DNA of 37,358 nt from a virus: UHGV virus genome UHGV-0063828. One strand, given 5' to 3'. Below are positions 356 to 20,236 of this stretch, piece after piece. The notes beneath the pieces are model-generated. The model saw only the letters and a list, made by a program, of their open reading frames with translations, did no database searches and was not told the DNA's origin. The translations under genes were made by a program, and so were the position numbers. Position 1 is the stretch's first letter. Each line of letters opens with the position of its first letter.

Positions 356-653
356 GATTTGCCCTCGCGTGAAAATATTTTCGATTATTTATAAAAAAGA
401 CTTGACAAAATCAAAAGGTACTGTTCCACTGGTGAAATAAAGGGAGTTTTCGGCACCCCGGTTTTTGATGTGCGTGTGAGATTTCAAAACAGGTGCAGTG
501 CAGCCCACCAGCGCGGTCGCTACGCGACTATTAACACCAGCCAATCCCTTTCCCCGCCTCGATCTTTCCCTTCGTTATAAAGCGTTTTAGGCGCTCTCCT
601 GAATGCGCAGATCAGATAAATAATTTTACGCAAATTTAATGGAGGATAACCGG

Positions 654-1208: not shown

Positions 1209-1303
1209 AACGCGTTATAAATAAATGTATGAAAGATGTTGAACGGGTCAACGTCTACGGGGGGAGAACATCCCCCGCTTAACTTTTAAGAGGATATAAA
1301 ACT

Positions 1304-1588: not shown

Positions 1589-1746
1589 TATTGTAATCTG
1601 CCTTTTCTCCTTATGTGGTTTTAACAGGGGGCTTTCGAAAGAGAGTTCCCGATTAAAAGCCATAAAACACATTCAGTACAGTGTTTTCATAGTCAGTGAT
1701 CTATACAACATAAAAACATAACAAGTATAGATTGAGTATTAATCCT

Positions 1747-1773
1747 CCCGCCCTTCGGGGCGGTTATTTTTCT
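1747..1773 (+). terminator. Intrinsic terminator with UUCG tetraloop
   Basis: CCGCCC-TTCG-GGGCGG followed by TTATTTTT. Confidence 0.7.
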
Positions 1774-1847
1774 GGCTTTACTAGATAATGTAGCATTATG
1801 TTCATTATAACCTCATCTTTGTTGTGCAACCTAACCTAAACTTACTA

Positions 1848-1873
1848 GGGACTCTTCGGAGTCCCTTTTTTTA
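1848..1873 (+). terminator. Intrinsic terminator with UUCG tetraloop
   Basis: GGGACTC-TTCG-GAGTCCC followed by TTTTTTT. Confidence 0.7.
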
Positions 1874-2812
1874 TTGGCAGTAAGAAAAGTTAGTACCGTA
1901 CATTTCATCATGAAGCATTGCAGCATTGCGTTTCTGTTCTTCTTCCTCATCTTCTACATCACTAGAAAAATGAGATTTGCCCTTAAAAGAACGAAGTAAT
2001 TGCAGTGCAGCCATCGGATCACGCATCACATCGATTTTCACTTCTACTTCATCATTTGCGGCCTCATCAGCCGCGTTTTCAACTACTGCTACCGGAGCAA
2101 CTTCTTTAGCTTTCAGTTCTTCAATCTCAGCTTTCTGTGCTTCGATAATCTGGTCTTTTTCTTCCAGTGCAGCTTTCAGTTCTGCGATCTGTGCTTCCAG
2201 TGCAGCAAAGCGATCTTCAACAACCGGAGAAACAGCATTCACCTGTGCTTCCAGTTCCAGAAATGCTTCGCAAGATTCAATACGTTCTTTCTCTTCACCT
2301 TCATAAGCAACCAGTTCTACAACTTCTTTTTCGGTAGCGTGGCTGTTAAAGAAAACAGCAAAGTAAGGATTGCCGGATTTAGTGAAGTTCAGTTTAGCTT
2401 TTCCGGTAACTTCTTTACGACGACCGAAGGTGATCTGGCAATCAGCGGTATCCTGAAAATCCATGTTAGGAGCGGAAACGATAGCAGTATCACCAGCAAT
2501 AACCAGGTGGAACAGTTCAGAAGAGTTCTTAACGGTAAAGGTAACGATGTGGTCTACTGCAACGTCTTTAGCTGGTTTAACGCGGTCGATTGCTTTACGA
2601 ATGCCGTTAGGCAGTTTACCGTCAACACCAAAGCCAGCCGCGATCAGTGCTTCACGATGTGCTTTAAAGCCAGCGAAAGCGGATTTCTGCTGTGCAAAGG
2701 AAACATGAGCAACAACTTTCGGCTGAATCTTCTTGTTTGCTTCTGTGCCAAATTTGATAACTGCTTTAGCGTTGGTTACTTCGTTAGTGAAAAAGTTAGC
2801 GGAAAATAACAT
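1871..2812 (-). CDS. Hypothetical protein with coiled-coil segment and acidic C-terminal region (313 aa)
   Basis: ATG start with GGAG upstream; heptad-like AALEAQIAELKAALEEKDQIIEAQKAEIEELKAKE; acidic stretch DVEDEEEEQ near C-terminus. Confidence 0.5.
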   Translation of the reverse strand: MLFSANFFTNEVTNAKAVIKFGTEANKKIQPKVVAHVSFAQQKSAFAGFKAHREALIAAGFGVDGKLPNGIRKAIDRVKPAKDVAVDHIVTFTVKNSSELFHLVIAGDTAIVSAPNMDFQDTADCQITFGRRKEVTGKAKLNFTKSGNPYFAVFFNSHATEKEVVELVAYEGEEKERIESCEAFLELEAQVNAVSPVVEDRFAALEAQIAELKAALEEKDQIIEAQKAEIEELKAKEVAPVAVVENAADEAANDEVEVKIDVMRDPMAALQLLRSFKGKSHFSSDVEDEEEEQKRNAAMLHDEMYGTNFSYCQ

Positions 2813-2855
2813 TATAAATACTCCGTGGAAAGTTAGTTTTAATTGTTCATTTCAA

Positions 2856-2893
2856 GCCTCCCTTGTTGCAGCAAAGGAGGCTTTTTCTTTTTT
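2856..2893 (+). terminator. Plus-strand intrinsic terminator located between two minus-strand genes
   Basis: GCCTCC...GGAGGC stem followed by TTTTTCTTTTTT. Confidence 0.55.
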
Positions 2894-2925
2894 AAAGCCA
2901 TCATATAATTCTCAGTGAAAGGTTA

Positions 2926-3108
2926 TTACCACACCTCTGCGGTAATCTTTACTTTAATGTCATACTTCTTTAAGAGTTTGTGGAAGGTTGATTGATCAAT
3001 ACCTTCACCTTTAAACCATTCACCCATCACTACATCAGGTGTCAGTTCAAAATAACGCTTTGCCATTTCTAAAACGATTTCGCGAGTGAACTTAACAGGT
3101 CGTGCCAT
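2926..3108 (-). CDS. Small HTH-type DNA-binding protein (60 aa), candidate regulator
   Basis: Strong AGGAGGA SD before ATG; borders the large repeat-rich non-coding region and is divergent from the rightward early genes. Confidence 0.5.
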   Translation of the reverse strand: MARPVKFTREIVLEMAKRYFELTPDVVMGEWFKGEGIDQSTFHKLLKKYDIKVKITAEVW

Positions 3109-3626
3109 CTCGAATCCTCCTAAATCTGGATTAATGATTTCTTAAAAAAGAGCGTTAACCGCTCACTATTATTTATATGGGGATTGTATTTTATTTTTCA
3201 ACCCCTCACATTTATCTCTTATATATGTATTTATAACAGAGATATGTTAAAATGTTATTCAGATGTTATCAGGCGTGTTAAATGTGTTAAACCACAGCAC
3301 GAATTGCTAAAGCGAAGAACACGATTTAACCAAATTGATGTTTATTCAATCAATTTAGAAAAAGGCATAGCACTTTTTGCTAAAGCGGTGAGCATTAATT
3401 GAGCTATGAATTGTAAAGATTTGTTACAAGATTTTCTCTCAGATCCAAATCTTCACAGACATATAACAATTTAACACGGTGATAACAATAGGAAGGAAAA
3501 TCGGTAAATTTTCACTTTCAATACAAATATTATACCACATTTTTCTCGAATTGTCAAGTATAGCACCAAACCTACATAGTGTCAAGAAAGGACTTTCAAA
3601 CCTACACTAGCCCTACACTATGAAAA

Positions 3627-3866
3627 TTGCCCCTGAATTTTTGCCCCTGAACCAAAATCCCCCTAGATTCCACATCCCATTTTTGCCCCTGAAACCCACT
3701 ATTTTTGCCCCTGAAATTCTGGGGAACAGTGATTTTGCCCCTCATTTTTGCCCCTGAAATGCCAATAATTGCCCCTGAAAATCTCATTTTTGCCCCTGAA
3801 ATTTGCCCCCGAAAAGGATTGGTGAGAAAAACTCTTTATAAAACATTAACTTAGTGAGGGGCAAAA
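3627..3866 (+). repeat. Iteron-like array: 7 perfect and 2 variant direct copies of TTGCCCCTGAA, plus one inverted copy
   Basis: Perfect copies start at 3627, 3641, 3683, 3705, 3748, 3769, 3790; variants at 3735 and 3803; inverted GAGGGGCAAAA at 3856-3866; same motif forms the hairpin at 6324-6345. Confidence 0.85.
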
Positions 3867-4016
3867 GCGAGGGATCGGGCGTGCATAGATATTATATAAC
3901 ACATTCGCTACGCTCATGTGTAAAACCAAAAACAACAAATAACCAAAAAGATATTAGGAGGGCGTAGCCCGACTGCGCGAAGCGCCAACCAATTACTTCT
4001 AGTAACAACTAATTTA

Positions 4017-4230
4017 AACTAGATGATCTTAGAAGGAATTAACTAGTTTGCTCGCTCGCTTCGCTCACTCTCAAACGTCTGCGACGCCACTGCGTGGCAT
4101 CGAGAATCACTTCTGAAAGGATTTTCTTGAAAGGGATTTTAAACTAGTTACTAACTGATTCTAGAAAGATAGTAATAATCACTTTGAAGATAATAGTAGT
4201 TAACTGGTTACTAGATGATTCTAGATCACT
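4017..4230. repeat. Cluster of ACTAG-centred palindromes and direct repeats
   Basis: AACTAGTT at 4041-4048 and 4142-4149; AACTAGATGATCTTAGAA at 4017-4037 vs TTACTAGATGATTCTAGATC at 4208-4229; TCTAGA sites. Confidence 0.7.
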
Positions 4231-4485
4231 TTAATGATCATGAAAGGTATTGGTTATCCCTTCGGGATTGCAACCTTCGGTTGCTAAATTGCTTCCTGAT
4301 TATAATTTCTCCAAAAGAAAGATTCTTATATTCTAAAGATACTTCTTCGTTTTGATGATGATTTAATCAAAATCTATGAAGGAGGCGAAGCCGACTGAAT
4401 CCAATCACTTCCAAATAGATAAAAAATTCTCGTTATAAATACTAGTGTAATTTGTTTGATTCACTTTCTTTTAGAGGATACCACT

Positions 4486-4938
4486 ATGATCAATACTAAA
4501 ACTCCTTTCATTCTTCTGGGTCTGAACCATGATGATAATCTGGCTATGATGCATGTTTTCGCTAATCGTGGTTATAACATCATTCGTCATTCCGAAGACT
4601 CCAATTTCTCAACTGCTTTCTATGCTCTTAAACGTAATGGTCGCCCTACGGTTATCGTAGACTGCTTTACTGATGAAGGTCGTGAACAATACAACAACAT
4701 TCCGGCAATTATTGTTCGTGATGACCTGCCGTTTGATGTTCGTGAATATGACGTTGATTTAGGCTCTTACTACGGGATCGCGGATCTTGACCAGATTATG
4801 GCTGATTATGGTAAACAACCCGCTCAGGAAGCCCCAGAACACGATGAACAAGACGAAGATGACGACGACTACGCACCAATCGCTTTTTCTTCTCACGGTG
4901 GCTTCTACGGTTACGATGAAGGCTTAGATATGCTGTAA
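4486..4938 (+). CDS. Acidic early protein (150 aa), function unknown
   Basis: AGAGGA SD before ATG at 4486 (track start 4456 is a TTG); first gene after the non-coding region; very acidic C-terminal half (EHDEQDEDDDDY). Confidence 0.5.
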   Translation: MINTKTPFILLGLNHDDNLAMMHVFANRGYNIIRHSEDSNFSTAFYALKRNGRPTVIVDCFTDEGREQYNNIPAIIVRDDLPFDVREYDVDLGSYYGIADLDQIMADYGKQPAQEAPEHDEQDEDDDDYAPIAFSSHGGFYGYDEGLDML

Positions 4939-4973
4939 GTTAGGTCAACCCTTTGGCGTTTTGTCAAGGGGTA

Positions 4974-5003
4974 TTGACAAAATTTTATGACTTTTTTATG
5001 ATT
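4974..5003 (+). promoter_or_regulatory. Sigma70-like promoter TTGACA-N18-TATGAT with adjacent palindrome TTGTCAA-N6-TTGACAA (4961-4980)
   Basis: Hexamers read directly; located upstream of the gene at 5059. Confidence 0.45.
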
Positions 5004-5058
5004 ATCGCACTTGACAACTTTGAACCTATTTGACCTAGATTTGTAAAGAGGGTGTAAC

Positions 5059-5391
5059 ATGAAAGAATTTACCATCACTAAATCCCTGTATGACTGGACT
5101 GTTAAAATCTCCGGCAAAACCGTTTCTGTAAGCCCTAGCCATGTAGAAAATGATTGGGGCGTATCCCGTGAAACAATCTCCCGTAGTATGCATGTTCCGT
5201 TTGATCTGATGTCCTTAACTGGTATTCATGCAATGCTGGAAGTTCGCGAGCAATTCGAAGCTGGTAATCACAATGCGACTCCAGTTAGCAATCACCTTCT
5301 TACTAATGAAGAACGTGAAATCATCGAAAACTGGCGTTATGAATATGCGATTCCTTATTATGAAGAAGACCAAGTAGAAATCGATTGGTAA
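5059..5391 (+). CDS. Hypothetical protein (110 aa)
   Basis: AGAGGG SD; preceded by promoter-like TTGACA-N18-TATGAT. Confidence 0.5.
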   Translation: MKEFTITKSLYDWTVKISGKTVSVSPSHVENDWGVSRETISRSMHVPFDLMSLTGIHAMLEVREQFEAGNHNATPVSNHLLTNEEREIIENWRYEYAIPYYEEDQVEIDW

Positions 5392-5487
5392 TAAATTTCT
5401 ATCATAAATAAAATTGTTCCGGTGGTGATGCCGGAACTAGGAGGACCAATATCATTATCGCAAAACCGTTTAAGGGGAATTTTTACT

Positions 5488-6318
5488 ATGAATACTGTTA
5501 CTACTATGAATACTGCTGTTAAAACTGCTTCCGTGTCTCTGGTTGTTGATAACACCAAACCGCTGACCATGTCTTCTCGTCAGATCGCTGAATTTACCGG
5601 AAAAGAACACAAAAACGTTAAACGTGATATTAAATCCATGCTCGATGCTCTGGAATTAGATGTGCTCAGTTTTGAGCGCACCTATCTTGATCAGTGTGGA
5701 CGTGAACAAACCGAATATCACCTTGACGAAGAACTTACGCTGACTCTTGTTACTGGTTACGATGTTAAGCGTCGAATGGTTGTTATTCAGGAATGGAAAC
5801 GACTGAAAGAAGAAAATGAAAAACTGCGTTCTCAGCAAGTCAACCCATACGCAAACATGACTAAGCTCGATTGGATTCGTGAGGCAATGGAATTGGAAGC
5901 CGCAAACGAACAACTGATTCAAGAAAAGAAACAACTGGTTGAATTGCATGTTCGTAAAGCTATCGACACACACAGTCTTAGCCGCTTATTAGGCGAAAAA
6001 CGAGGCTCTACGAAGGTACAAATTATTCTGAAAGGTTTATGTGCTGCTGGTGTTCTTGAGCGTCGTCTGGATGCTTCTGGTAAGCCTAAAGGCTATGATC
6101 TGCTTCCTCCTGGCTATATGTTCGCTCGTATGTCGGCACACGGTCAGATCGAGTTCACTGCTGATGCTATCCCGCATCTCGTAAAACTCGGATTGCTTGA
6201 AGAAGAAAAGGCCGCAACTTTGAAATTGCCACAGCCGAATAACTCACGAGCAATCGTCAATAATACTGCTTTGCTGATTCGTCAGAATGCTGGATCACTG
6301 GAACACTTCGGACTGTGA
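5488..6318 (+). CDS. Rha-family phage regulatory protein / antirepressor
   Basis: Motif MSSRQIAEFTGKEHKNVKRDIKSML matches the Rha N-terminal signature as recalled; AAGGGG SD before ATG at 5488; tetraloop-free hairpin terminator downstream. Confidence 0.6.
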   Translation: MNTVTTMNTAVKTASVSLVVDNTKPLTMSSRQIAEFTGKEHKNVKRDIKSMLDALELDVLSFERTYLDQCGREQTEYHLDEELTLTLVTGYDVKRRMVVIQEWKRLKEENEKLRSQQVNPYANMTKLDWIREAMELEAANEQLIQEKKQLVELHVRKAIDTHSLSRLLGEKRGSTKVQIILKGLCAAGVLERRLDASGKPKGYDLLPPGYMFARMSAHGQIEFTADAIPHLVKLGLLEEEKAATLKLPQPNNSRAIVNNTALLIRQNAGSLEHFGL

Positions 6319-6325
6319 TAATTTT

Positions 6326-6356
6326 TGCCCCTGAATTTCAGGGGCTTTTTGTTTTC
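6326..6356 (+). terminator. Intrinsic terminator after the Rha-like gene, built from the iteron motif
   Basis: GCCCCTGAA-T-TTCAGGGGC followed by TTTTTGTTTT. Confidence 0.7.
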
Positions 6357-6364
6357 TATAGGTA

Positions 6365-6389
6365 TAAAAAAGCCACTCCGAAGAGTGGC
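6365..6389 (-). terminator. Minus-strand intrinsic terminator with UUCG tetraloop
   Basis: On minus strand GCCACTC-TTCG-GAGTGGC followed by TTTTTT. Confidence 0.65.
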
Positions 6390-6397
6390 AATGAGAA

Positions 6398-6625
6398 TCA
6401 AACTCCGTTGATTGGTACAACCTCTCCACCGTCTACACGTATAAAGAACTCGACATTAAGTTTCTTCATACTTTTATAAAACTGGGCGGTGGAGATGCCC
6501 AGATCGTTTAATACTTTCTCTCTGCTTTCTTTACCTTTGCCAGCTTTGTAAAACTCGTAGCAAATGTATGCCAGTTGTTCACGATTAAAACGGGCAGGGC
6601 GACCGCGAGTAGCTTTAGTAGTCAT
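6398..6625 (-). CDS. Small DNA-binding-like protein (75 aa) sharing a C-terminal motif with the adjacent 200 aa protein
   Basis: Start placed at ATG with GGAGAAA SD (track start is a GTG); RGRP N-terminus; C-terminal KKLNVEFFIRVDGGEVVPI resembles [21 protein letters not shown] of the neighbour. Confidence 0.4.
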   Translation of the reverse strand: MTTKATRGRPARFNREQLAYICYEFYKAGKGKESREKVLNDLGISTAQFYKSMKKLNVEFFIRVDGGEVVPINGV

Positions 6626-6660
6626 AGTCATTTTCTCCAAATTAAAGTGAATGTTCACCT

Positions 6661-7263
6661 TTATTTAGAGGACTTAGATTTTATAGGAAAAAGTTCTCCA
6701 TCGTCAATACTCATAAAGAACTCAACCTTAATCCCGTACTTCTTCAACCGTGAATAATATGTACCCCGACTTATATCAACCTTGCGAAGCACTTCAAAGA
6801 AGGATTTAGGATCGTTGTAATAGTGGCTGTACTTCACGTTAGCGAGTTCAACGAATAGTTCCCTTGTATCACCATAGCCTTTCTTGAAAGCGATGTTACG
6901 AGGCATTGTAACAGCCATATTATCCCGTGTCTGTTTCAACACTTCTCGGATCGGCTTCCACTGCAACCGATAGATAGGACCGTCATCAATGCGATAATAA
7001 CGCTTGATATCAAAATCAAACCATTCACGGACTCGCTGAAACTCTGTCTGTGATGTTCGGTGCTTCTTAAAGAAGTTATGGATATCTGTATACCCATGAT
7101 CGCGATACAACTCGATTAAAATTTGCTTCGCTTCTTCGCGACTAAAGCCGGATGTTGTGTAATCAGTCTTCTTGTGATGGTGCTTAACTGGCAAACGATA
7201 TTCATGATCGGTACAAGACAAGGCTAATTCTAATTCATCTCTTTCTTGCTGATTAATTAGCAT
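6661..7263 (-). CDS. Hypothetical protein (200 aa) with repeated HTH-like modules
   Basis: Strong AAGGAGGG SD; internally repeated helix-rich units; divergent from the large terminase gene. Confidence 0.5.
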
Positions 7264-7350
7264 ACACCCTCCTTAAATCTTAATACCCGTATTTATCAAA
7301 AAATCAACAATTTAATAAATACCTTCATATTTCGTAATGAGGGTAATTAC

Positions 7351-9258
7351 ATGAAACTGATTTCTAATAAGGCAAAATTAAAAAAGATTCTTAAAAATGC
7401 AGCCAAATATATTACGCCACCGCCTAAGCTCCTTCCTTCTGAATGGTGCGAAGCGAATCTAACGCTAGTCGATGGTCCTCGTGCTGGGGATAAAGTTAAA
7501 TTACTGTCATTTCAGAAAGGCATGATTGATGCTCCTTTCCTTGAGAAGAAAAAGAAGTACGTTTTTTGTACGAGTGCGCAGATCGGAAAGACGACCATCA
7601 TGTCAGGGATCATGTTTAACCAGATGGCAAACGATCCGTGCAATATCATTATCGGGCAAAGTACCGCTAAAGAAGTGGCTATGTACTTGAATACTAAGAT
7701 CCGTCCTTCTATTGAAGCATGTCCGGCATTACAGGAAGTGGTAACAGATAAGAATGATCGTAATGCGGTAAACAACAATAACCAGATTCAGCTAAAAACA
7801 AACCATTTCCTTTACATGGTTTCTTTGACCAGTCCTTCAAGTTTGCGTGGGCGTACTGCCAAGTTAGGGATTGTAGACGAATGCGACGCAGCAACAATCA
7901 CCGAAGAAGGTTGTCCGGTGGCACTAACTGCAAACCGTTTAACTACCTTTGGTGATGAAGCTCGATTGATTGTTTCTAGTACCCCAACCAATAAGCTGGG
8001 AATCATTAACCAGCAATGGTTATCAAGTGATATGCGTATGTTTTTTGTTCCGTGTCCTCATTGCGGGGAACACCAGGTGATCGAGTGGGAAAACGTTCAA
8101 TTTGAATGGCGTAACATCGATGGTAAGAACTTACCCGATCCTGATACCGCTCGTTATATTTGCCCCCACTGTAAGAACGCATGGACCGAAGGGGAACGAA
8201 TCAGGGCAGTAGCACAAGGCGAGTGGAGAGCAACCCGTGAAAGTGAGGTAGCAGGATTCTGGATCAGCCGTCTGTATTCACCTTTCAGCACGATCCGCGC
8301 TTGTGTGGTTGATTTTAGTCATGCGTGGCAATCCTTTGATTTACAATCATTTTATAACACCGTGTTAGGCAAGGTATACGACGATCAGGACACGGCAGTA
8401 GAAGCAAATGAACTGGAACAACTCAAAACAGATGTTTCTATCGAGAATATCCCTGATGACGTAATTTTCTTGTGCTCAGGAATTGACCAGCAATTGGACC
8501 GCGCAGAATCTACCATCTTAGGTGTAGCGAAAGATAAGGTTTACATTCTGGATCACCGCAGCTTTTACGATCATAACTGTGAACGATACGAATCACCTGT
8601 TTGGGATCGTCTGGTTAACTTCAAGAAAACCAAATTCTATAACGTTAATGGTGAACGTGTGCCAATGCTCGCCAGCTTCCTTGATACATCGAACGGTCGA
8701 TTCACTCAAGCCGGATACCGTATTTGCGGCAAGTGGAAGAACCTACACGCTATCAAAGGTAGTTCATCTGGTAATGCTCCAGTGATTCCGGTTAAACCTA
8801 CCCGCACAGGTGGTCATGAATTGCTTATGTTGGGTGTTAACGTTGGGAAATCTGCTGTTCGTGAAATGTTGGTTAGAAACCTGAAAGACAATCCTCACAT
8901 TGGCTTAGAAATATCAGAAACCGTTCCTGATGATTATCTCGATCAGCTTTTGAGTGAATCCATCAAGCGTACTACTACTGGCGTGCGTTGGGTGAAAAAT
9001 CCAGGTAGTACCCGAAACGAGGCTCTCGACTGTCTGGTTTATAGCTATGCTGCTTCTCGCTACGTCCTTTCAAAAATGTCATGGGATAAACTCATTGCAA
9101 TGAAAGACAGCTTAAACCGTGTTGTCGAAGAATCCGTAAAAGCTCCTGAAACGCAATCTGACGAGCAAATCGAAGAAACTAAGCCAATCACACGACCGCA
9201 ACGTCAAAACATCGCCAGACGCCCAAATAGAGGCCGTAGCTGGGTAACATCGTTCTAA
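7351..9258 (+). CDS. Terminase large subunit, lambda gpA family
   Basis: P-loop region [10 protein letters not shown]; zinc-ribbon-like CPHCGEHQ...CPHC; GIDQQLDR and RNEALDC motifs as recalled from lambda gpA. Confidence 0.9.
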
Positions 9259-9330
9259 TAACTCGCCGTCCTTCGGGGCGGCTTACTCCTAAATATTGTT
9301 AATCCAATAACAATTAAATAAGGGGTAATT

Positions 9331-9825
9331 ATGAGTTTAGAACTAATTCCCTTAGTAATTCGTAAAGGCGAAAAAATCACGCTGGCGAATGAAGAGGGTG
9401 TAACAATTCAGGTAGGTAATAGCAAAGGCATTGTATATCAGGTCGATGATGCACCGGAAAATCACGAGATTAAAACGTTAGACTTTCCAGAAGGGAAGAT
9501 GACCATTGTTATTACTCTTGATGAAGAACTGGTATCCATGCAGGAATTAACTGTTTTACCAGTATTCGCCAAACAATCCAAAAAAGAACATCTGCGGGAA
9601 ACTATCGCCAAAATCGAGCAAGTTATTTTCGCCCGTTTATCTGGGGACGAAGCCGCATTATCTGCAATGACAATAAAAGGGAACTCATTCGCTTATGAGT
9701 CATTGGGTGTTCTCCAGACTCTAAAAGTCGATTATGAACGTCAACTGTCTAAATTAATTCAAGCCGAACGACGTAAACAGGGAATTAGCCCGATTAAAAA
9801 TATCAAATTACGTCTTACGCGATAA
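9331..9825 (+). CDS. Hypothetical protein between terminase and portal (164 aa)
   Basis: AAGGGG SD; position corresponds to the head-tail joining gene slot in lambda-like layouts. Confidence 0.45.
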   Translation: MSLELIPLVIRKGEKITLANEEGVTIQVGNSKGIVYQVDDAPENHEIKTLDFPEGKMTIVITLDEELVSMQELTVLPVFAKQSKKEHLRETIAKIEQVIFARLSGDEAALSAMTIKGNSFAYESLGVLQTLKVDYERQLSKLIQAERRKQGISPIKNIKLRLTR

Positions 9826-9835
9826 GGGGTAAAAC

Positions 9836-11347: not shown

Positions 11348-11392
11348 TAACCAACGGGGGCGCAATGCCCCCAATTAATTAAAGGTGATTAA

Positions 11393-13402
11393 ATGCTTAA
11401 ATTTCGCCGCGATCTTAACAGTTACGGTGGAGTTATTAACGAAGGGCATAACGATCAATACGAATTTGAAATTGCTTTCTCCAGTACCCAGCCTTACCAG
11501 CGCCAATTCTGGGATGAGCAAAATCAAGAAATGGTGGTATTAGATGAAATTCTGGTACATACACCGGAAGCGGTTGATCTGTCTCGTCTGAATAATAACG
11601 CTCCGTTGCTGTTCAATCATAATTTCGATAATCACATTGGTGTAGTCTGCGACGCTCGAATCGATGCGGATAACGTAGGTCGTGCTCTGGTTAAATTCTC
11701 TAAGCATGGCACTTTGGCTAATGATATTCGCAATAAAGTCATTGAAGGTACGATGGAAAAAATTTCTGTCGGTTATGACATTAAAGAATATCACATCGAC
11801 TACACCAAAGGACAATTGATTGTTACTAAGTGGGCACCCTATGAACTCTCATTTGTCACCGTTCCCGCAGACGATACGGTCGGTTTAAATCGCTCTCTAA
11901 ATACTATCACAGTTAATTTGGAGGCTAAACGCGATATGACTAAAGAACAAATCGAAGAAATCAAAGAAGAACAAGAATCCGCTCAGGTTGAAGAAACTCC
12001 GGTAGAAGAAAATAAAGAACCGGAAGTTGAAGAAACTCAAGAGCGCCAAGTTGAAGAGAATAAAGAAAATGAAAATCTCGAAGACGGAAAAGACGCTGAA
12101 CATCCTGAAAGTGTTGATGATGATAGTTCAACTGTTCGGGAAACAGAAGAAGTAAAAGAAGAACGTGAAGCCGCTCCGGTTGAAGAAGAAAAAACCGAAG
12201 AAGTGGCTGAACGTTCCGAAGAAGACGAATTAGAAATTCGCGAAATTGCACGCGAACTAAATATTGATGACTCTGAATTAGCACGCGCATTGGCAATTAA
12301 AGACATGACGCCGGAAGCATTCCGCACTAAGGCACTAAATAACATTACCAATGCTCAACGTAATAACGAACAAATTAAGGACTCTAAAATGGAAAAAACT
12401 TTCGATCTTAATAACGTAATCCGCTCCCTGGTAGATGGCGACGTGCTCGGCGCTCATGAAGCTGAATATTCCGCAATGGCTGCTACTGCAACTATGCAGC
12501 GTGGTCGTGCTGCTCGCGGTGGCTCTGTATTCGTTCCTGCTGCTGCTATGCGTGCTGCTTCCGAAGGTAACACCAAAGCTACTCTGACTGCTGTTACTGA
12601 TGAAAAACTGCTGACTGAATCCTACATCGAAATGCTGCTTCCTGCTTCGTGTCTGGGTCGTCTGGGCGTGACCGTCCTGTCTGGTCTGAATAGCCCGATC
12701 GCTGTTCCGAAAATGACTGCTTCCAGCGTTGATGCATTTGGTTTTGTTGATGAAAACGGTGCTGCACCGGAAAGCAAAGCTGAATTTTCGAACGTGAAAA
12801 TGGCTCCGAAAACTTTTGCTGGTGGCAACCCGATCAGCCGTCAGTCTCTGAAAACTGTTCCGAATATTGCTACCCTGATCACTGATCATATTAACAAAGC
12901 TGTTCGCATCAAACTGGAACAACTGATTCTGTCTGACAAAGATAATACTCGCGGTCCGGCTGGTCTGGTTAAACAACTGGTAGATGGTGGTCGCGTTGCT
13001 AAGAAAACCGCTTTCAGCTACAAAGACCTGTTGAAAGAGATTGCCGCATTGACCGACGCTGGCGTTCCTGCTCAGGCGATCAAGTTCGCTATGAGTGGTG
13101 CAACTGCTGCTGAACTGGAATCTACCCCGAAATCTGATCGTGGTGACGCTCAAGGCTTCATTATGGAAAACGGCAAAATTGCTGGTTATGAAGTAGTTAC
13201 TTCTGGCGTTATTCCGGCAGATACGATCGTTCTGGGCGATTTCAGCGGCATTATCGTTGGGGAATGGGGAGGTCTTGAGCTAGATCTGGACGATTCGACG
13301 TACCGTGCCCAGTCGGCGATCGTGCCTCGTGTATGGCTGGATTTGGACTACGTTGTAGCACAGCCGGAAGCTCTGAAAGTTCTGAAAATTGGCGAAGAGT
13401 GA
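11393..13402 (+). CDS. Fused prohead protease / scaffold-like acidic linker / HK97-fold major capsid protein
   Basis: N-terminal ~180 aa prohead-protease-like; Glu/Lys-rich acidic middle; C-terminal ~337 aa capsid-like with strongly optimised codons; in-frame internal ATGs with SD at 11936 and 12389. Confidence 0.8.
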   Translation: MLKFRRDLNSYGGVINEGHNDQYEFEIAFSSTQPYQRQFWDEQNQEMVVLDEILVHTPEAVDLSRLNNNAPLLFNHNFDNHIGVVCDARIDADNVGRALVKFSKHGTLANDIRNKVIEGTMEKISVGYDIKEYHIDYTKGQLIVTKWAPYELSFVTVPADDTVGLNRSLNTITVNLEAKRDMTKEQIEEIKEEQESAQVEETPVEENKEPEVEETQERQVEENKENENLEDGKDAEHPESVDDDSSTVRETEEVKEEREAAPVEEEKTEEVAERSEEDELEIREIARELNIDDSELARALAIKDMTPEAFRTKALNNITNAQRNNEQIKDSKMEKTFDLNNVIRSLVDGDVLGAHEAEYSAMAATATMQRGRAARGGSVFVPAAAMRAASEGNTKATLTAVTDEKLLTESYIEMLLPASCLGRLGVTVLSGLNSPIAVPKMTASSVDAFGFVDENGAAPESKAEFSNVKMAPKTFAGGNPISRQSLKTVPNIATLITDHINKAVRIKLEQLILSDKDNTRGPAGLVKQLVDGGRVAKKTAFSYKDLLKEIAALTDAGVPAQAIKFAMSGATAAELESTPKSDRGDAQGFIMENGKIAGYEVVTSGVIPADTIVLGDFSGIIVGEWGGLELDLDDSTYRAQSAIVPRVWLDLDYVVAQPEALKVLKIGEE

Positions 13403-13493
13403 AATAACGAAGAATTGCCGGAAGAAATTCCGGTAGTTACGGCGAAAGCCACAGCTAAAAAGGTGGGACGTCCACCGAAAGCAAAATAATAAT

Positions 13494-13522
13494 TAGCCCT
13501 GCCTAACGGTGGGGCTTTTTTG
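13494..13522 (+). terminator. Intrinsic terminator after capsid gene
   Basis: AGCCCTGCC-TAAC-GGTGGGGCT hairpin with wobble pairs followed by TTTTTT. Confidence 0.6.
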
Positions 13523-13551
13523 TATGTAAATACTCCATAAAGGGGGTAACT

Positions 13552-13842
13552 ATGTTCAAATTATCAGAATCACAATTATCAAGAATGTTCCGAAGTGCTC
13601 CTGTATTTTCGGTGGAAGGTGGTAAATCAATTCGTGCTTATCATGAAATTACTACTACCGACGAACAAGGGGTAATGACAGAGACAGAATTTTTATTTTG
13701 TCGTGAGGGAGACTTAAAGCAGGGTGATATTGTCATTGTAGAAAATCAGCGTTTCAAAGTTCAATACGTTAAGCGCAATGGTGACAATACAACTGATTGC
13801 TTTATCACTCTGGCAGGGGGTACACATGCTCGCTACCGTTAA
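13552..13842 (+). CDS. Putative head-tail connector / head completion protein (96 aa)
   Basis: AAGGGGG SD; position immediately after capsid gene and terminator. Confidence 0.45.
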   Translation: MFKLSESQLSRMFRSAPVFSVEGGKSIRAYHEITTTDEQGVMTETEFLFCREGDLKQGDIVIVENQRFKVQYVKRNGDNTTDCFITLAGGTHARYR

Positions 13843-14248
13843 TAATATGCCGAGACTGAAAATCAAACGCGCCTTGCAAGATATTATCGAACAAGATTTA
13901 GGTCTGGCTTTAAACGTAGAACAAACTCAGCAAGGCTTTAGTGATGATGTGGTTTGTTGGATCACCGGAATGAATGAGACTTACACTAGGGTCCGTGGTG
14001 GTAATGCAATGCAAGCTGAATGCGTTATCGAAATGCAATTGTATTCTCAGATTCATGAAACCAAAATTCATGAGGGTATTTGCCAGATAATCCAGATTCA
14101 GCCGGATAACCCACGTTTTAAAGATTTGGGCTTCGCTATTTCAGATATCACTCCAGTAGCTTCTAATACCGATTATGACGATGATTCTAGTGATGGGGGT
14201 ATCGTTGGGACACTTAGCCTTAAATTTTCTTATCTAGCGCGTTTTTAA
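13826..14248 (+). CDS. Putative head-tail connector protein (141 aa)
   Basis: Start placed at ATG 13826 with GGGGG SD, overlapping the previous gene end; positional inference only. Confidence 0.4.
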   Translation: MLATVNNMPRLKIKRALQDIIEQDLGLALNVEQTQQGFSDDVVCWITGMNETYTRVRGGNAMQAECVIEMQLYSQIHETKIHEGICQIIQIQPDNPRFKDLGFAISDITPVASNTDYDDDSSDGGIVGTLSLKFSYLARF

Positions 14249-14257
14249 GGGGTAATA

Positions 14258-15091: not shown

Positions 15092-15164
15092 TTGCTTCTC
15101 TAAATAAAACATGACGCGGGAGGTTAACGCCTCCCTTATTCCTGTTTTATAGTGAGGTGATTCG

Positions 15165-18100
15165 ATGCAGTCGATCCAATTTAAACGAACAAATGTTTCT
15201 GGCAAAAAACCAACGCCGGAACAATTACAGGTCGGTGAGGTAGCAATCAACCTTAAAGACCATGTTATTTTTACCAAAGACCGAGATCATGAAGTAGTTC
15301 AAATCTCTGTTTCTCCTGAAACTCACGCGGCACTAGAATCTAAAGTTGATGCTAACAAACAAGAACTGGATAGCACAATTGCAGTAAATGACCGCAATAT
15401 TCACGCTAAAGTAGATGAAATTAAACAAACTACTGATGCAACCATCGCAGCAAATCACGCAGAAATTAACAATAAAGTTGATGTAATTAAACGCGAAACC
15501 GACGCGACAATCGAGGCCAATAAAAATAAAGCTGCTTCCGATCTTGCTGGTGTTAAAGCTGAATTGTCGGATACCATCAACGCTAATAAAAATGCGGCTG
15601 CTGTAGCAACTCAGGAACTGGACACCCGCATCAATAAAAAAGTTGATGATATTAAATCCCGTACCGATGCAACCATCGCAAGCAATGACAAAGCAATCAA
15701 TGACAAAGTTGATTTGATTAAGGCAGAAACTGACCGCACTATCGCAGCAAATAAAGTCTATGCGGAAAATCAGTTAACTGACACCTACAATAACCTTACT
15801 GGTGTGATTGCAGCCAATAAGCAAGAGGCAGCGGATAACGTCGCGGCATTAACCCGTGATGTTGAAGCCAAAAATACCGCAATTCATAGCAAAGTTGACA
15901 ATAACAAGTCTTACACTGATTCTGAATTGGCACGTTTAGAAAGCCGTATTGATGCAGCCGATGGATCGAGTGATGGCAAGTACATCAAAAAGCACGTAAA
16001 CACTTACACTGATGGCTATTTGCTATCTAAGACCGCAAACTATTTTGATGATCCGGGTGCGCGTAATCTTGATTATTTTGGTGCATTCCGCATGAATGAC
16101 CTGGCGGGTCATATTGCAATGATCTTGCATGTTCCGCATCCATCTGGTGTTAATCATGCTCGTGGCTTTGAGTTCACTTATGGGTCCAATCCACATGCTA
16201 CTGTAAGAACATACGGCTATGATGAATTGGGTCATTTGGCATATTCTCACCGCATGTATCATGAAGGCGATAAACCAACTCCGGCTGAAATTGGCGCATA
16301 TTCGAAAGCAGAAATTGACCGGATGTTCCAGAAGACCATCAACTTTGGTGTAGAAACTGGATGGTTTAAAATTGCTACCGCCTTTATTCCGCAAAATGAT
16401 GGACGTAGCTTGAAAATTAGATTGATTGGTGGAAATGGGTGGAACGTAGGCCAAACTGGACAATGTAATATTATTGAACTTGTTATAAGGACTAGCAACG
16501 GTTCGCCTAAAGGAATTAACTTTGTTGCGTATCATCATGTTTCTGGTTACGAGAATCAATTTTGTGCCATTAATACAAGTGATGACACTTATGATATCTA
16601 TGCATATTACTTCGAATTTACTAATATGGTAATGGCTGAATATCAAGCGTCTACCGGTGTTAATTTAACTGTACTTGATCGACCTGAATATGTAGGCGAA
16701 AAACCTGTAGCTGATCATATCTATGATGCATATACAATACACTCCTTTAACAGTTTCAGTAACCGTGGAACGTTAAATTTTGCTGGAAACCATCAAGGTC
16801 AATATGATATTGAGCATTTGAACGAACAACCGACAAATGCTAAGAAAATGCTGCGTCGCTTCCGTAGTTCTGCTCCTGCCACTATCTGGCACGAAAGTGT
16901 TGATGACCAAAATTATCGTCTTGCTACTGGATATAGCGATGTAAACCCACAATTATTGCTTTCTGCTGTAACCGGGTTACATGTCAAGAGATTAACGTTG
17001 GATGGTGGTGTCACTGGAAATTCTGGTATTGATATTCGTCGAGGACCAAACGAATCAAGCCATTTTAATTTTATGGATTATCGCACTGGTCAAGATGTTC
17101 GTAATGGCTGGTTTGGCTTCGGTGATGGTCAGACCAAAGATTTTATTTGGTGGAACGATAACGGTCAAAACTCGATAAACTTGATTGAAAACGGTGAATT
17201 GCATATTACTGGCGGTAAAGGCCAGAAAATTGTAATGAATAGCGAAGTTGCATTATCTGAAAATGCTCGTTTGGCTGTCAAAGGCGGTAACTATGGCTTA
17301 ATTTTTAGAAATGATGGATCTGACTTCCATATTCTCACCACAGGTCTCGGTGATTCCTTTGGACCGTGGAATACTCGTAGACCATTCAGCTATAATTTTG
17401 CGGATGGTGGATTGGATCTAGGTGGTACTGAAACCGCTCGTTGTTTGCACCTGGGAATTGATGGTAGCACTCGTCTCGAAGACAACCTTTTATTTAAATC
17501 TGGTTCTCGTCAATCTATGGACTATATGGAACTCGTCCATTGGGGTAACAGTAATACAGGACGCAACAACGTTTTGAGTATGCGGGATTCCAAAGGATTT
17601 TTAGCCGAATTTGAACGCACCGGAAACAATAGCATTAAAACTAGATTCTTTGGTGAAACCTTCACTGACGGTACATTATACCTAAATCAGATGAATAATA
17701 GCTCTGAACGATTCTCTATCAACAATTGGGGAAATTCAGAAGTTGGACGCGCGGCAGTAATGGAAATCGGTGATTCCAAAGGTTATCACTTCTATACGGA
17801 ACGTAGAACAGATAACAGTTTGGCGTTTGATGTTGCTGGCGCTTTTACTGTGCATGGACCTAACGGAATAACCATCAAAAACTCAGCGGGTGCACGCCAT
17901 ATCTGGTTTAGAGATGATAGCGATGCAGAAAAGGCTGTTATCTGGGCTACAGATGATGGTCTTTTACATATTCGCAATAACTACGGTGGACATTTTAGTC
18001 ATCACTTCCAGGGTGCAATGATTAAAGTGGGAGAGCGTGTTCCTTATGCCGCAGATCAAGGACTTATCCGTGGTGAGGTTTCTGGTGGTGCATATGTTGC

Positions 18101-18683
18101 ATGGAGAGACCGACCTGCTGGTTTGTTGGTTGACTGTCAACAAAGCGTTGATAGTGCTCATGCTATTTGGAAAGCGGTTGATTGGGGGCGTAACTACATC
18201 GCTGCTATGGACGTTCATTGTCCCGGTGATAGTAATAATACTGCGGCAGCGGTTCTTCATGTTCAGGGTGCTGATTATCAATTCCATGCAAGTGGAGAAT
18301 TTCATGCCACTGGTAACGGAAACTTTAACGATGTTTATATTCGTTCCGATCGTCGTCTGAAAATTAATGTTGAAGACTACGAAGAAAATGCGGTAGATAA
18401 GGTAAATAAACTCAAAGTTAAAACCTACGATAAAGTTAAATCACTTTCTGATCGCGAAGTCATCGCACATGAGATTGGTATTATCGCACAGGATTTACAA
18501 GAGGTATTACCGGAAGCTGTTAAAACCGCAAAAATTGGTGGTCTTGATAACCCAGAAGAAATTTTAACAATTTCAAACTCCGCAGTGAACGCGCTTTTAA
18601 TTAAAGCGGTCCAAGAAATGAGCGAAGAAAATAAACTTCTTCGTGAACGTCTTGCTGCTATTGAGGCTAAATTATTTGGTTAA
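15165..18683 (+). CDS. Side tail fibre with C-terminal intramolecular chaperone (peptidase S74-like) domain
   Basis: N-terminal periodic KVDxIKxxTDATIAxN repeats (4 copies); last ~112 aa SDRRLKINVEDYEENAVDK...LAAIEAKL resembles the self-cleaving chaperone of T5 L-shaped fibre and endosialidases. Confidence 0.85.
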   Translation: MQSIQFKRTNVSGKKPTPEQLQVGEVAINLKDHVIFTKDRDHEVVQISVSPETHAALESKVDANKQELDSTIAVNDRNIHAKVDEIKQTTDATIAANHAEINNKVDVIKRETDATIEANKNKAASDLAGVKAELSDTINANKNAAAVATQELDTRINKKVDDIKSRTDATIASNDKAINDKVDLIKAETDRTIAANKVYAENQLTDTYNNLTGVIAANKQEAADNVAALTRDVEAKNTAIHSKVDNNKSYTDSELARLESRIDAADGSSDGKYIKKHVNTYTDGYLLSKTANYFDDPGARNLDYFGAFRMNDLAGHIAMILHVPHPSGVNHARGFEFTYGSNPHATVRTYGYDELGHLAYSHRMYHEGDKPTPAEIGAYSKAEIDRMFQKTINFGVETGWFKIATAFIPQNDGRSLKIRLIGGNGWNVGQTGQCNIIELVIRTSNGSPKGINFVAYHHVSGYENQFCAINTSDDTYDIYAYYFEFTNMVMAEYQASTGVNLTVLDRPEYVGEKPVADHIYDAYTIHSFNSFSNRGTLNFAGNHQGQYDIEHLNEQPTNAKKMLRRFRSSAPATIWHESVDDQNYRLATGYSDVNPQLLLSAVTGLHVKRLTLDGGVTGNSGIDIRRGPNESSHFNFMDYRTGQDVRNGWFGFGDGQTKDFIWWNDNGQNSINLIENGELHITGGKGQKIVMNSEVALSENARLAVKGGNYGLIFRNDGSDFHILTTGLGDSFGPWNTRRPFSYNFADGGLDLGGTETARCLHLGIDGSTRLEDNLLFKSGSRQSMDYMELVHWGNSNTGRNNVLSMRDSKGFLAEFERTGNNSIKTRFFGETFTDGTLYLNQMNNSSERFSINNWGNSEVGRAAVMEIGDSKGYHFYTERRTDNSLAFDVAGAFTVHGPNGITIKNSAGARHIWFRDDSDAEKAVIWATDDGLLHIRNNYGGHFSHHFQGAMIKVGERVPYAADQGLIRGEVSGGAYVAWRDRPAGLLVDCQQSVDSAHAIWKAVDWGRNYIAAMDVHCPGDSNNTAAAVLHVQGADYQFHASGEFHATGNGNFNDVYIRSDRRLKINVEDYEENAVDKVNKLKVKTYDKVKSLSDREVIAHEIGIIAQDLQEVLPEAVKTAKIGGLDNPEEILTISNSAVNALLIKAVQEMSEENKLLRERLAAIEAKLFG

Positions 18684-18722
18684 TTAAAATAGCGGGGAGA
18701 AATCCCCGCTAAGGATTCTTAT

Positions 18723-19019
18723 ATGGGATATTGGGTAAGTAGTGAAATTAATACTAAAATCGATGCTTTAAAATGGCATGTATTTGATATTCCTAACGGC
18801 TATGGTACTGCTCGTGCTGGTGTCGCTGTAATGCGTCATAATGCTGGTGGTGGGTGGTCTGATGCACATATTAACGTAGATGGTTTGACCGTTGCTCGTC
18901 GTCGTGGTGGGACCAATTGGGGATCTACTATAAATTCGTTTGTTCCTGCTGGCTGCACCGTCTCCTTTGGTTTAGGGGGTGAAGGTGGTGTTGAATATTT
19001 TAAATTCATGGAGTTTTAA
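18723..19019 (+). CDS. Small Gly/Trp-rich protein, paralog 1 of 3 (FDIPNG family)
   Basis: AAGGA SD; shares W..FDIPNGW and C-terminal T-V-S-F..G...YFKF pattern with the next two ORFs. Confidence 0.6.
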   Translation: MGYWVSSEINTKIDALKWHVFDIPNGYGTARAGVAVMRHNAGGGWSDAHINVDGLTVARRRGGTNWGSTINSFVPAGCTVSFGLGGEGGVEYFKFMEF

Positions 19020-19021
19020 TT

Positions 19022-19327
19022 ATGGCTGGATGGATAAATCAAAGAATGTCAAACGCTATTAGTATTTGGGCTAATGGTGGATATTTTGATATCCCCAACG
19101 GCTGGGTTACTGATTCATGCGGAATTGTTTTTGCTCATATGGAAGCCATTAACGGTGCTGGTGATCTTGATTCTGAATTGGCTGTAAATGGATTGATTGA
19201 ATCAGGTCATCATGCTGGTGATGCTGGGAGTTGGGGCGCTAGTTCTTTAGTTGGCGCTGGTGCTACCGTTAGCTTTACATTGGGTAAAGGTAGTTTGCAT
19301 TATTTCAAATTCAGGAGAATGCACTAA
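19022..19327 (+). CDS. Small Gly/Trp-rich protein, paralog 2 of 3
   Basis: Starts 3 nt after paralog 1 stop; conserved FDIPNGW core. Confidence 0.6.
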   Translation: MAGWINQRMSNAISIWANGGYFDIPNGWVTDSCGIVFAHMEAINGAGDLDSELAVNGLIESGHHAGDAGSWGASSLVGAGATVSFTLGKGSLHYFKFRRMH

Positions 19328-19629
19328 TGGCATTTTGGGTAGATGGCGCTTTGGGGACTAGGGCGGGTAAAGCAAATCAAGGATGGTTTGATATTCCTAA
19401 CGGTTGGACAGCCGACGCTTTCGGGACTATTTCATTCTGTGTTCATTCTTCCGGTGGTGGCGGCGGTGACTCTGAATTGTTTATTCATGGTTTTTGTGTT
19501 TCTGGAAGCCATAAGGGTCATGATTGGGGACAGATCCATTCTTGTATTGCACCGCAAGGAGCAGTAATTACAGTTAGCACAAATAGGGGGATCGCTCATC
19601 TTCGTTATAGACGTTTGAGCAATCGCTAA
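19327..19629 (+). CDS. Small Gly/Trp-rich protein, paralog 3 of 3
   Basis: TAATG stop/start overlap with paralog 2; AGGAGA SD; conserved FDIPNGW core. Confidence 0.6.
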   Translation: MAFWVDGALGTRAGKANQGWFDIPNGWTADAFGTISFCVHSSGGGGGDSELFIHGFCVSGSHKGHDWGQIHSCIAPQGAVITVSTNRGIAHLRYRRLSNR

Positions 19630-19683
19630 ATAAATAGAATTACGGGTATGTACCCTATTGTTTAAAATAGAAGGAAAAGAATA

Positions 19684-20154
19684 ATGACTACTAAACTTGA
19701 TATTTTTTCTGGTGGCCTCGTTGGTCTGTTTCTGCAAGAAGACGTAAGCAATAAAGACCTTGATGCTGAAACCTATCTGGAAATCCCAGAATGTGCGGCT
19801 TTCCCGGAAACTGGTGTAGAACGTTCTACTATCGATGTTCCTAACTTCGGTGGTCCGTATAACCGTAAGCTGGTTGGTCGTATGTCTGTACCGGATATCG
19901 AACTTTCGATCAACTACATGCCGGGTAACGAAGTACACGAAAAACTGATTAAAGCAACCGAAGACGGTAAGCGCGTACAGCTTAAAATTGCTTACTACAT
20001 CGACGCTACGAAAAAATCTGGTGTGCACATCGCTTATAACGGCTTCCTGTCTAAAACTACCATGACTGGTGGTGAGGATGCTGTAGTAGGCCGTACCTTC
20101 ACCTTTGTAGTAGATGGTGCTCCGGTTAAACAAGCTGTTTTCCAGAAAGTCTAA
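19684..20154 (+). CDS. Major tail (tube) protein
   Basis: 156 aa, strongly optimised codons like the capsid domain; precedes chaperone pair and tape measure; strong tetraloop terminator immediately downstream. Confidence 0.65.
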   Translation: MTTKLDIFSGGLVGLFLQEDVSNKDLDAETYLEIPECAAFPETGVERSTIDVPNFGGPYNRKLVGRMSVPDIELSINYMPGNEVHEKLIKATEDGKRVQLKIAYYIDATKKSGVHIAYNGFLSKTTMTGGEDAVVGRTFTFVVDGAPVKQAVFQKV

Positions 20155-20163
20155 TATTATCTA

Positions 20164-20188
20164 GCCATCCTTCGGGGTGGCTTTTTTG
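20164..20188 (+). terminator. Intrinsic terminator with UUCG tetraloop after major tail protein gene
   Basis: GCCATCC-TTCG-GGGTGGC followed by TTTTTTG. Confidence 0.7.
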
Positions 20189-20236
20189 TTTCCAATTCTA
20201 AATAAACATATCTAATTAACTTAAGAGGAAACAAGA

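Follow-up and report, generated by a model that had tools for sequence, protein, structure and literature searches.

Hairpins built on the sequence CUUCGG occur in the intercistronic regions of bacteriophage T4 (Tuerk et al. 1988, as cited in PMC4371310 and PMC8948821), where they have been tied to transcript stability (PMC8948821). A second set of phage stem-loops, the promoter-early stem-loop (PeSL) cassettes, is known from RB49/phi1-type phages (Arbiol et al. 2010, PMC2839356; Comeau et al. 2014, PMC4122927); PeSL stem-loops terminate transcription in reporter assays (PMC2839356), and within PMC2839356 and PMC4122927 PeSLs are described in T4-like myoviruses only. Encapsidated mini-circles have been described for RB49 and phi1. 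Among the terminators of E. coli, UUCG loops are reported to be over-represented (d'Aubenton-Carafa et al. 1990). Here we analyse five hairpins with UUCG loops in the virus genome UHGV-0063828, a 37,358-nt stretch of DNA (the window, below) that represents a prophage of Escherichia coli, and we refer to each hairpin by its first position (1748, 1847, 6372, 9265 and 20163). Four of them are followed by a U-tract, and three are identical to stem-loops of the RB49-like phages of Krischvirus. We consider it likely that the four U-tract hairpins are ordinary intrinsic terminators or attenuators, that 9265 has mainly a translational or 3'-end role, and that 6372, 9265 and 20163 belong to a sequence family shared with Krischvirus.

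Abundance and placement of the UUCG hairpins

All five GC-rich hairpins listed in an earlier reading of this sequence (the original prediction) are present, at positions that differ from those first given by 1-2 nt at most (Table 1). Their stems of 6-8 bp, with at least five G-C pairs, close on the 4-nt loop through a C-G pair in 5/5 cases, and each hairpin, when folded alone, gives the predicted structure at -13 to -14 kcal/mol. Hairpins of this type were counted by a strict criterion (TTCG loop, stem of at least 6 bp, at least four G-C pairs and at most one G.U pair), under which the window holds these five and no others, as compared with a mean of 0.038 and a maximum of 1 in 1000 dinucleotide-preserving shuffles. 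TTCG is also the commonest tetraloop of the window, closing 5/20 strict tetraloop hairpins and 4/17 generic terminator-like hairpins. Two CTTCGG mini-hairpins at 4250-4290 were left uncounted, as they are in the wrong register and form UUC triloops.

UUCG hairpins are enriched in the window, at a density of 1.34 strict hairpins per 10 kb that resembles that of T4 (1.00 in its first 100 kb) and exceeds those of T1 (0.61), T7 (0.25), the whole genome of the Krischvirus G37-3 (0.24), lambda (0.21) and E. coli K-12, sampled as six 50-kb pieces totalling 300 kb (0.10). Among terminator-like hairpins, the share with a UUCG loop is 4/12 in T4, 1/26 in T1, 0/1 in T7, 4/43 in G37-3, 1/17 in lambda and 1/56 in K-12. 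The density is 13 times that of K-12 (p = 7e-4, conditional binomial), and the UUCG fraction of terminators is higher than in K-12 as well (4/17 versus 1/56, Fisher p = 0.009), so that the comparison with the host background proposed in the original prediction comes out in its favour.

All five hairpins are intergenic and lie 3' of genes, and in each the UUCG reads on the strand of the upstream gene (5/5, binomial p = 0.03), an orientation that favours a role in RNA over one as a DNA palindrome. The five elements would act as short GC-rich stems with an extra-stable C(UUCG)G cap at the 3' ends of genes; at the four U-tract sites, the nascent hairpin would form ahead of the U-rich tract and host RNA polymerase would be released. 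A search of the whole window against Rfam at the gathering threshold yielded 0 hits.

Table 1. Hairpins and genes of the prophage window to which the text refers.
Feature	Coordinates	Strand	Sequence or identity	Stem	Free energy (kcal/mol)	z
Hairpin 1	1748-1763	+	CCGCCC-TTCG-GGGCGG	6 G-C pairs	-13.0	
Hairpin 2	1847-1866	+	AGGGACTC-TTCG-GAGTCCCT	8 bp	-14.1	-3.8
Hairpin 3	6372-6389	-	GCCACTC-TTCG-GAGTGGC	7 bp	-13.0	-5.0
Hairpin 4	9265-9282	+	GCCGTCC-TTCG-GGGCGGC	7 bp incl. one U.G	-14.1	
Hairpin 5	20163-20182	+	AGCCATCC-TTCG-GGGTGGCT	8 bp incl. one U.G	-13.4	
ORF at one prophage end	50-355	-	60% aa identity to G37_3_00209			
TerS-like gene	639-1208		phrog_57, E = 3e-15			
Ant-like anti-repressor	5422-6318					
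TerL	7351-9258		lambda gpA-type; stop codon 9256-9258			
Distal tail-fibre gene and three small paralogous ORFs	16029-19645	+	common to Krischvirus and T-even phages			
Tail tube	19684-20154		siphovirus-type			
Tail assembly chaperone	from 20237					
UvsW-like helicase	30898-32397	-	Pfam UvsW_N, E = 2e-34			
CapR-domain protein, smaller	32388-32957	-				
CapR-domain protein, larger	33000-34286	+	also T5orf172/MUG113 domain			
ORF at the other prophage end	36658-36927	-	44% aa identity to G37_3_00196			

Transcription-unit ends and a predicted fold over the next gene's start

Conservation was followed in 33 IMG/VR loci whose TerL proteins are 79-95% identical in amino acid sequence, together with the UTME-8 prophage. 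UUCG hairpins occur in these relatives at the same five sites only, and hairpin structure is conserved even where the sequence differs (1748, 6372 and 1847). Since the differences consist of loop variants and a compensated pair at 1748, a second allele at 6372 and alternative stems at 1847, it is structure, not sequence, that appears to be selected.

Hairpins 1748 and 1847 form a tandem pair, ~160 nt and ~260 nt past the stop codon at 1588 of the open reading frame (ORF) 1304-1588. The first is followed by TTATTTTTCT (UUAUUUUUCU at 1764-1773). The second, with U7 at 1867-1873 after its stem, borders on the stop codon (1871-1873) of a convergent minus-strand ORF, 1871-2812, and is unidirectional, with its U-tract on the plus strand only; together, the two could act as a tandem stop that shuts the rightward unit against the convergent gene. 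A comparison of region 1200-4500 with Rfam at E <=1 returned noise only, and thus no known small RNA between the tandem hairpins, and a promoter sought by eye in 1764-1846 gave weak matches only. In relatives the stem of 1748 is retained around a loop of UUCG, GAA(G) or GAAA, and the L025 allele (CCGCCTC-GAAA-GAGGCGG) has one stem pair compensated. The loop is polymorphic (TTCG, C4-GAA-G4/5, GAAA) among L010, L019, L020, L023, L025 and L027; the C4-GAA-G4/5 form is an almost exact inversion and resembles a template-switch or quasipalindrome mutation. No significant twin of 1748 was found in the phage database. At the 1847 site, stem and loop are both different in L014, L020 and L023.

On the minus strand, 6372 lies 9 nt past the stop codon of ORF 6398-6658, is followed by U6 at 6366-6371 and stands opposite a plus-strand hairpin at 6327-6345, an arrangement consistent with its marking the end of a leftward unit. 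Nine relatives carry a second allele that has a different stem and the same loop, (AG)GCCAATCC-TTCG-GGGTTGGC(CT), and in L009 conservation is limited to ~40 nt around the hairpin, between unrelated flanks.

Hairpin 20163 lies 9 nt past the tail-tube stop codon, upstream of the tail assembly chaperone gene, is followed by TTTTTGTTT (UUUUUGUUU at 20183-20192), and is invariant in 15 relative loci. Placed past an abundantly expressed tail-tube gene, it would probably lower expression of the downstream chaperone genes. In read-through RNA the U-tract is predicted to pair with the downstream ribosome-binding site (z = -3.7), giving a three-helix layout that resembles the one at 9265, described below, and that shows no double-sided covariation.

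Hairpin 9265, 7 nt past the TerL stop codon, differs from the other four in its 3' flank, TTACTCC, with 4/8 T (TTACTCCT) as compared with 7/8 T elsewhere. No U-tract follows it in the window or in any of the 23 relatives carrying the hairpin, across which it is essentially invariant, with a 1-nt deletion variant in L027 and L034. Instead, the flank is predicted to contain an anti-Shine-Dalgarno (anti-SD) sequence, UUACUCCU (9283-9290), that pairs with AGGGGUAA (9321-9328), the Shine-Dalgarno (SD) region of the gene whose start is at 9331. Between the two, within 9283-9328, a small A/U hairpin is predicted, and an outer helix would pair the end of terL with the opening codons of the gene downstream, so that region 9250-9350 folds into three helices at -35.7 kcal/mol (z = -7.0); 9283-9335 alone, without the UUCG hairpin, has z = -2.9. 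The anti-SD varies in relatives (CUCCCCCU, AUCCCU, UUGCUCCU) through one-sided changes only, and its complementarity to the invariant SD is always kept. This intercistronic fold probably tunes translation of the next gene. Hairpin 9265 would have kept the hairpin core and lost the U-tract, with the anti-SD flank and the hairpin hiding the next ribosome-binding site, and it is more likely to tune translation or coupling, or to stabilise a 3' end, than to stop transcription.

The left arm (1-6600) is highly mosaic when compared with 22 relatives, with recurrent breakpoints at 401, 1265-1287, 1580, 1841-1874, 2812-2832, 4242, 5047-5064, 5389, 6329-6363 and 6569-6570. Breakpoints cluster on terminator hairpins at 1265-1287, 1841-1874 (n = 8), a cluster within which 1847 falls, and 6329-6363; 6372, too, coincides with a breakpoint cluster in this variable arm. 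The conserved structural operon holds 9265 and 20163. From 6570 onwards the relatives are collinear in their structural genes, save for a universal break at 13383-13436 just past the capsid gene.

Identical stem-loops and shared genes in Krischvirus

The entire 167.8-kb genome of vB_EcoM_G37-3 (G37-3 above) contains four strict UUCG hairpins, three of which are identical to 6372, 9265 and 20163. By comparison, G37-3 holds no twin of any of 18 control hairpins taken from T4, lambda, T7, T1 and K-12. With 1 twin among 315 control pairs, the probability of at least three twins in 20 pairs is 3.5e-5 (point estimate), rising to 3.2e-3 when the 95% upper bound is used. At 6372 the match is an exact 26-mer, U-tract included, in RB49, JSE and G37-3 (59095-59120). 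The 9265 core is that of a G37-3 terminator at 100595-100614, where a U-tract is present. The 20163 20-mer is identical in G37-3 at 101749-101768, followed there by TTGACA-17-TATAAT, with similarity continuing into the sequence on either side of the stem (33-36 nt, 94-97% identity, E = 2e-6 to 2e-7); each Krischvirus genome has matches of this type at 3-5 places, and Aeromonas T4-type phages have them as well. The G37-3 twins are annotated as terminators by ARNOLD.

A TTGACA-17-TATAAT or CATAAT promoter lies within 20-40 nt 3' of three of the four G37-3 hairpins, including the twins of 6372 and 20163 and not that of 9265. Promoter scans of the window found no sigma-70 site in the ~100 nt that follow each hairpin, except for a weak 9/12 match at 20285-20314, inside a gene, and full PeSL membership of the window hairpins was rejected because they have no adjacent sigma-70 promoter. 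T4 proper was rejected as a source of the hairpins, as no twins were found among 10 T4 hairpins. Hairpins 6372, 9265 and 20163 would instead belong to the same sequence family as the Krischvirus stem-loops, most of which are the stem-loop halves of PeSLs, and they most likely came into both genomes by the gene flow that also moved UvsW, the tail-fibre module and ORFans.

Sharing with Krischvirus also extends to longer stretches of DNA. When the first 20 kb of the window were compared by megablast with 50,697 phage records, matches were found only at 16028-19645, in T-even phages and Krischvirus. The tail-fibre module located there is 85% identical to G37-3 at the nucleotide level over 3641 nt and 96% identical over 18600-19645, and its three small ORFs (98, 101 and 100 amino acids, 35-42% identical among themselves) are 96-99% identical in amino acid sequence to G37-3 genes 00253-00255. 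T-even gp37 regions share it too, nucleotide identity of the 3.6-kb module being 85-96% across Krischvirus and T-even phages, and this host-range module lies between the post-capsid genes and the tail-tube gene. UvsW is 82.5% identical over its full length to the protein of vB_EcoM_G5211 (Krischvirus), with 56 records at 80-90% amino acid identity, and ~52% identical to those of other T4-type phages of E. coli, Klebsiella, Shigella and Salmonella. Within uvsW, a 487-nt patch (31021-31507) has 95.7% nucleotide identity to G37-3 beside a stretch at 78%, which suggests a recent partial gene conversion. Two further ORFs, one at each prophage end, are homologous to Krischvirus ORFans (Table 1). Finally, a motif at 4296-4377 is ~78-86% identical to an intergenic repeat present in four copies in G37-3 (63202, 100338, 100480 and 153189), whose consistent orientation there implies that the motif reads leftward in the window. 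It also occurs in other Krischvirus genomes, is intergenic every time and is not a consensus sigma-70 promoter.

The original prediction had treated all five hairpins as terminators, the UUCG design as a hallmark of T4-type transcription units, and the genome as a mosaic with a T4-like contribution. Terminator use is supported for 1748, 1847, 6372 and 20163 by their U-tracts, sense orientation and position at transcription-unit ends, and not for 9265, which has no U-tract. The hallmark is overstated: cUUCGg terminators are also found in T7, whose only strict hit is TE, in lambda after gene E, in T1 and at rpoC, one of the K-12 hits, and both the spread of the 9265 20-mer and the jumbo-phage twin of 1847, discussed below, weaken it further. 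A T4-type contribution is real, as judged by the hairpin twins, the tail-fibre module and UvsW, a genuine UvsW-like helicase, although the partner is RB49-like Krischvirus and not T4; the inference thus reached the right outcome by weak logic, because UUCG terminators are generic.

The window has 41% GC and matches at ~92% identity in 64/5426 complete E. coli genomes, every one of them chromosomal. In UTME-8 the element sits within a truncated ycdX, with window position 1 just beyond the junction; the window is thus an E. coli prophage inserted in ycdX. Besides the genes of Table 1 it encodes a portal, a 669-amino-acid capsid protein, a T-even-type tail fibre, a tape measure and tail tip that, like the tail tube, are siphovirus-type, an endolysin and a large serine recombinase. 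The closest capsid match is phage DCP80 at 45% amino acid identity, and no close relative of the prophage was found among cultured phages. The TerS-like gene is ~6 kb away from that of TerL, which is unusual for a gpA-type terminase, and the interval holds variable genes, the Ant-like anti-repressor and an iteron region. There, TTGCCCCTGAA is repeated in eight direct copies, one mismatched, at 3627-3813, in an ORF-poor 1.5-kb stretch (chance expectation 0.6). The arrangement resembles an array of iterons or operators and might be an origin or the binding site of a regulator. The window's two strongest sigma-70 promoter matches fall in this stretch, both on the minus strand, with their -35 elements at 3557 and 3585. 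One further copy, the ninth (6325-6335), is half of a perfect palindrome, GCCCCTGAA-T-TTCAGGGGC, at 6327-6345, scored as a plus-strand terminator in our scan. Two divergent genes encode proteins with CapR-homology domains, the larger 27% identical to G37_3_00240, which in G37-3 comes directly after a UUCG PeSL. An ARAGORN call of a 91-nt tRNA-Gln at 14013-14103 (minus strand) is probably a false positive, given its length and its location inside ORF 13778-14248.

Alternative explanations and likeness to known systems

Several observations weigh against the reading of four terminators, one translational element and a shared Krischvirus family. Putative termination at the four U-tract sites is read from hairpin anatomy alone, and the route by which hairpins came to be shared with Krischvirus is likewise inferred. 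For 9265 and 20163 the relatives are too close (TerL 79-95% amino acid identity) for covariation, and a scan of GTDB genome contigs with TerL found no relative and hence no more distant ones for this purpose. The consensus fold of 9250-9350 in seven distinct relatives keeps the structure with 0 double-sided compensatory changes, so that the case for the predicted occlusion of the ribosome-binding site is made by folding energy and one-sided changes only. Similarity of the hairpins to Krischvirus covers just 26-34 nt, and the flanking genes are not homologous. All five hairpins lie outside the DNA segments homologous to Krischvirus or T-even phages (158-259, 4296-4377, 16029-19645 and 31021-32208), and the idea that they are edges of transferred tail-fibre or UvsW segments was rejected, as none lies at an edge. 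UUCG hairpins are less dense in Krischvirus than in the prophage (0.24 versus 1.34 per 10 kb), so that any transfer could have run either way. Finally, the exact 9265 20-mer is present in >100 unrelated phages, including some that infect Pseudomonas, Caulobacter, Streptomyces or Sinorhizobium. Independent origins of identical hairpins are thus possible, and 9265 identity was rejected as a stand-alone proof of homology.

This last observation speaks for pure convergence, in which the two lineages would have arrived independently at the same short stem and UUCG loop, under selection for maximum stability in an AT-rich genome read by E. coli RNA polymerase, and the Krischvirus identity would carry no historical signal. 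Convergence would also account for the exact 30-mer of 1847 in E. coli jumbo phages and for the 12 places in each Erwinia MM7-like phage genome where a near-identical copy is found; in addition, an (A)GCC...GGC(U) frame is common to four of the five stems in the window and leaves fewer sequences to choose from, and there is no flank homology past 26-34 nt. We nevertheless regard convergence as rather unlikely, since three of the four G37-3 hairpins are twins of window hairpins as against 0/18 controls and 1/315 control pairs (P <=3e-3), the 20163 match takes in flanks outside the stem, and exchange of DNA between the prophage and Krischvirus is demonstrable. Chance or base composition carries negligible weight as an explanation: CTTCGG does occur 22 more times in the window without a stem, but the hairpins number 5 against 0.038 expected, are all intergenic and in sense orientation and are all conserved in relatives, and the shuffle and host comparisons rule this out.

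Two other proposals concern function. The hairpins could protect mRNA 3' ends, or act as processing barriers against 3' exonucleases, as proposed for many of the T4 intercistronic CUUCGG hairpins, with termination a minor activity; in keeping with this, 9265 has no U-tract, 6/10 strict T4 hairpins lack a T-run, and on the minus strand 1847 comes after the stop codon of ORF 1871-2812 without a U-tract. As a general account we judge this improbable, given strong U-tracts directly 3' of the stem in 4/5 hairpins, the position of three of those four at convergent transcription-unit ends, where termination is needed, and the activity of the Krischvirus equivalents as terminators in reporter assays (PMC2839356). 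A role at the DNA level, in which conserved short linkers serve, as in the PeSL model (PMC2839356), as recombination sites for module swaps, would fit the breakpoint clusters on terminator hairpins in 22 relatives, the ~40 nt kept around 6372 between unrelated flanks in L009, and the two ORFans and repeated intergenic motif shared with Krischvirus. It seems to us quite improbable, because the window hairpins do not have the PeSL promoter half, because no UUCG hairpin marks an edge of the Krischvirus-like segments (16029, 19645 and within uvsW), and because any mosaic phage would be expected to have breakpoints at gene ends, by whatever mechanism.

If the U-tract hairpins are terminators or attenuators, as we consider likely, their function is that of known stop and attenuation signals and involves no new mechanism; the presence of identical regulatory hairpins in a temperate prophage and in lytic T4-type phages is a modest novelty. 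A poorly characterised lineage of E. coli prophages trades DNA with RB49-like phages, down to identical hairpins of 20-30 nt. Much more tentatively, it is possible that PeSL-family stem-loops move together with ORFans and the UvsW and tail-fibre tip genes between lytic T4-type myoviruses and a siphovirus-tailed prophage, perhaps via mini-circles, and that captured stem-loops are redeployed: two would have become late-operon attenuators, one of those being rebuilt to sequester a ribosome-binding site. If so, the PeSL shuffling model would reach beyond T4-like myoviruses, across virus families and lifestyles, and resident prophages would be both reservoir and recipient of regulatory parts and host-range genes for lytic phages of the therapeutic type.

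How does the locus compare with described systems? In build, the window hairpins match intrinsic terminators with a UUCG loop, sharing the 6-8 bp GC-rich stem, cap, U-tract and position after a stop codon; T7 TE (7562-7581; GGCUCACC-UUCG-GGUGGGCC) and the E. coli rpoC terminator are made in the same way, and only 9265, without its U-tract, departs from the canonical form. Such loops account for about a quarter of terminator-like hairpins in the window, as opposed to ~2% in the 300 kb of K-12. In position, 9265 and 20163 recall T1, in which rho-independent terminators are annotated immediately 3' of the genes for TerL, the major head protein and the major tail protein, although most loops there are not UUCG, and lambda, where a cUUCGg hairpin lies 3 nt past the gene E stop codon. 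The T4 CUUCGG hairpins are alike in loop, closing pair, intergenic placement and density, and in T4, as in the window, hairpins with and without U-tracts are mixed. However, none of the 10 T4 hairpins that we examined has the same stem as a window hairpin, and the prophage, unlike T4, has siphovirus-type tail genes, a lambda gpA-type terminase and a serine recombinase. Compared with PeSLs, the window hairpins are not followed by a consensus sigma-70 promoter or an AT-rich UP region, and 9265 and 20163 lie inside a late structural operon instead of a hyperplastic ORFan region. On the side of likeness, 6372, 9265 and 20163 agree in every letter with stem-loops of G37-3 and RB49, including the U-tract for 6372 and 20163, the two whose G37-3 twins are themselves PeSL stem-loops; the prophage has homologues of two Krischvirus ORFans and of an intergenic repeat, and 1847 and 6372 coincide with mosaic breakpoint clusters.

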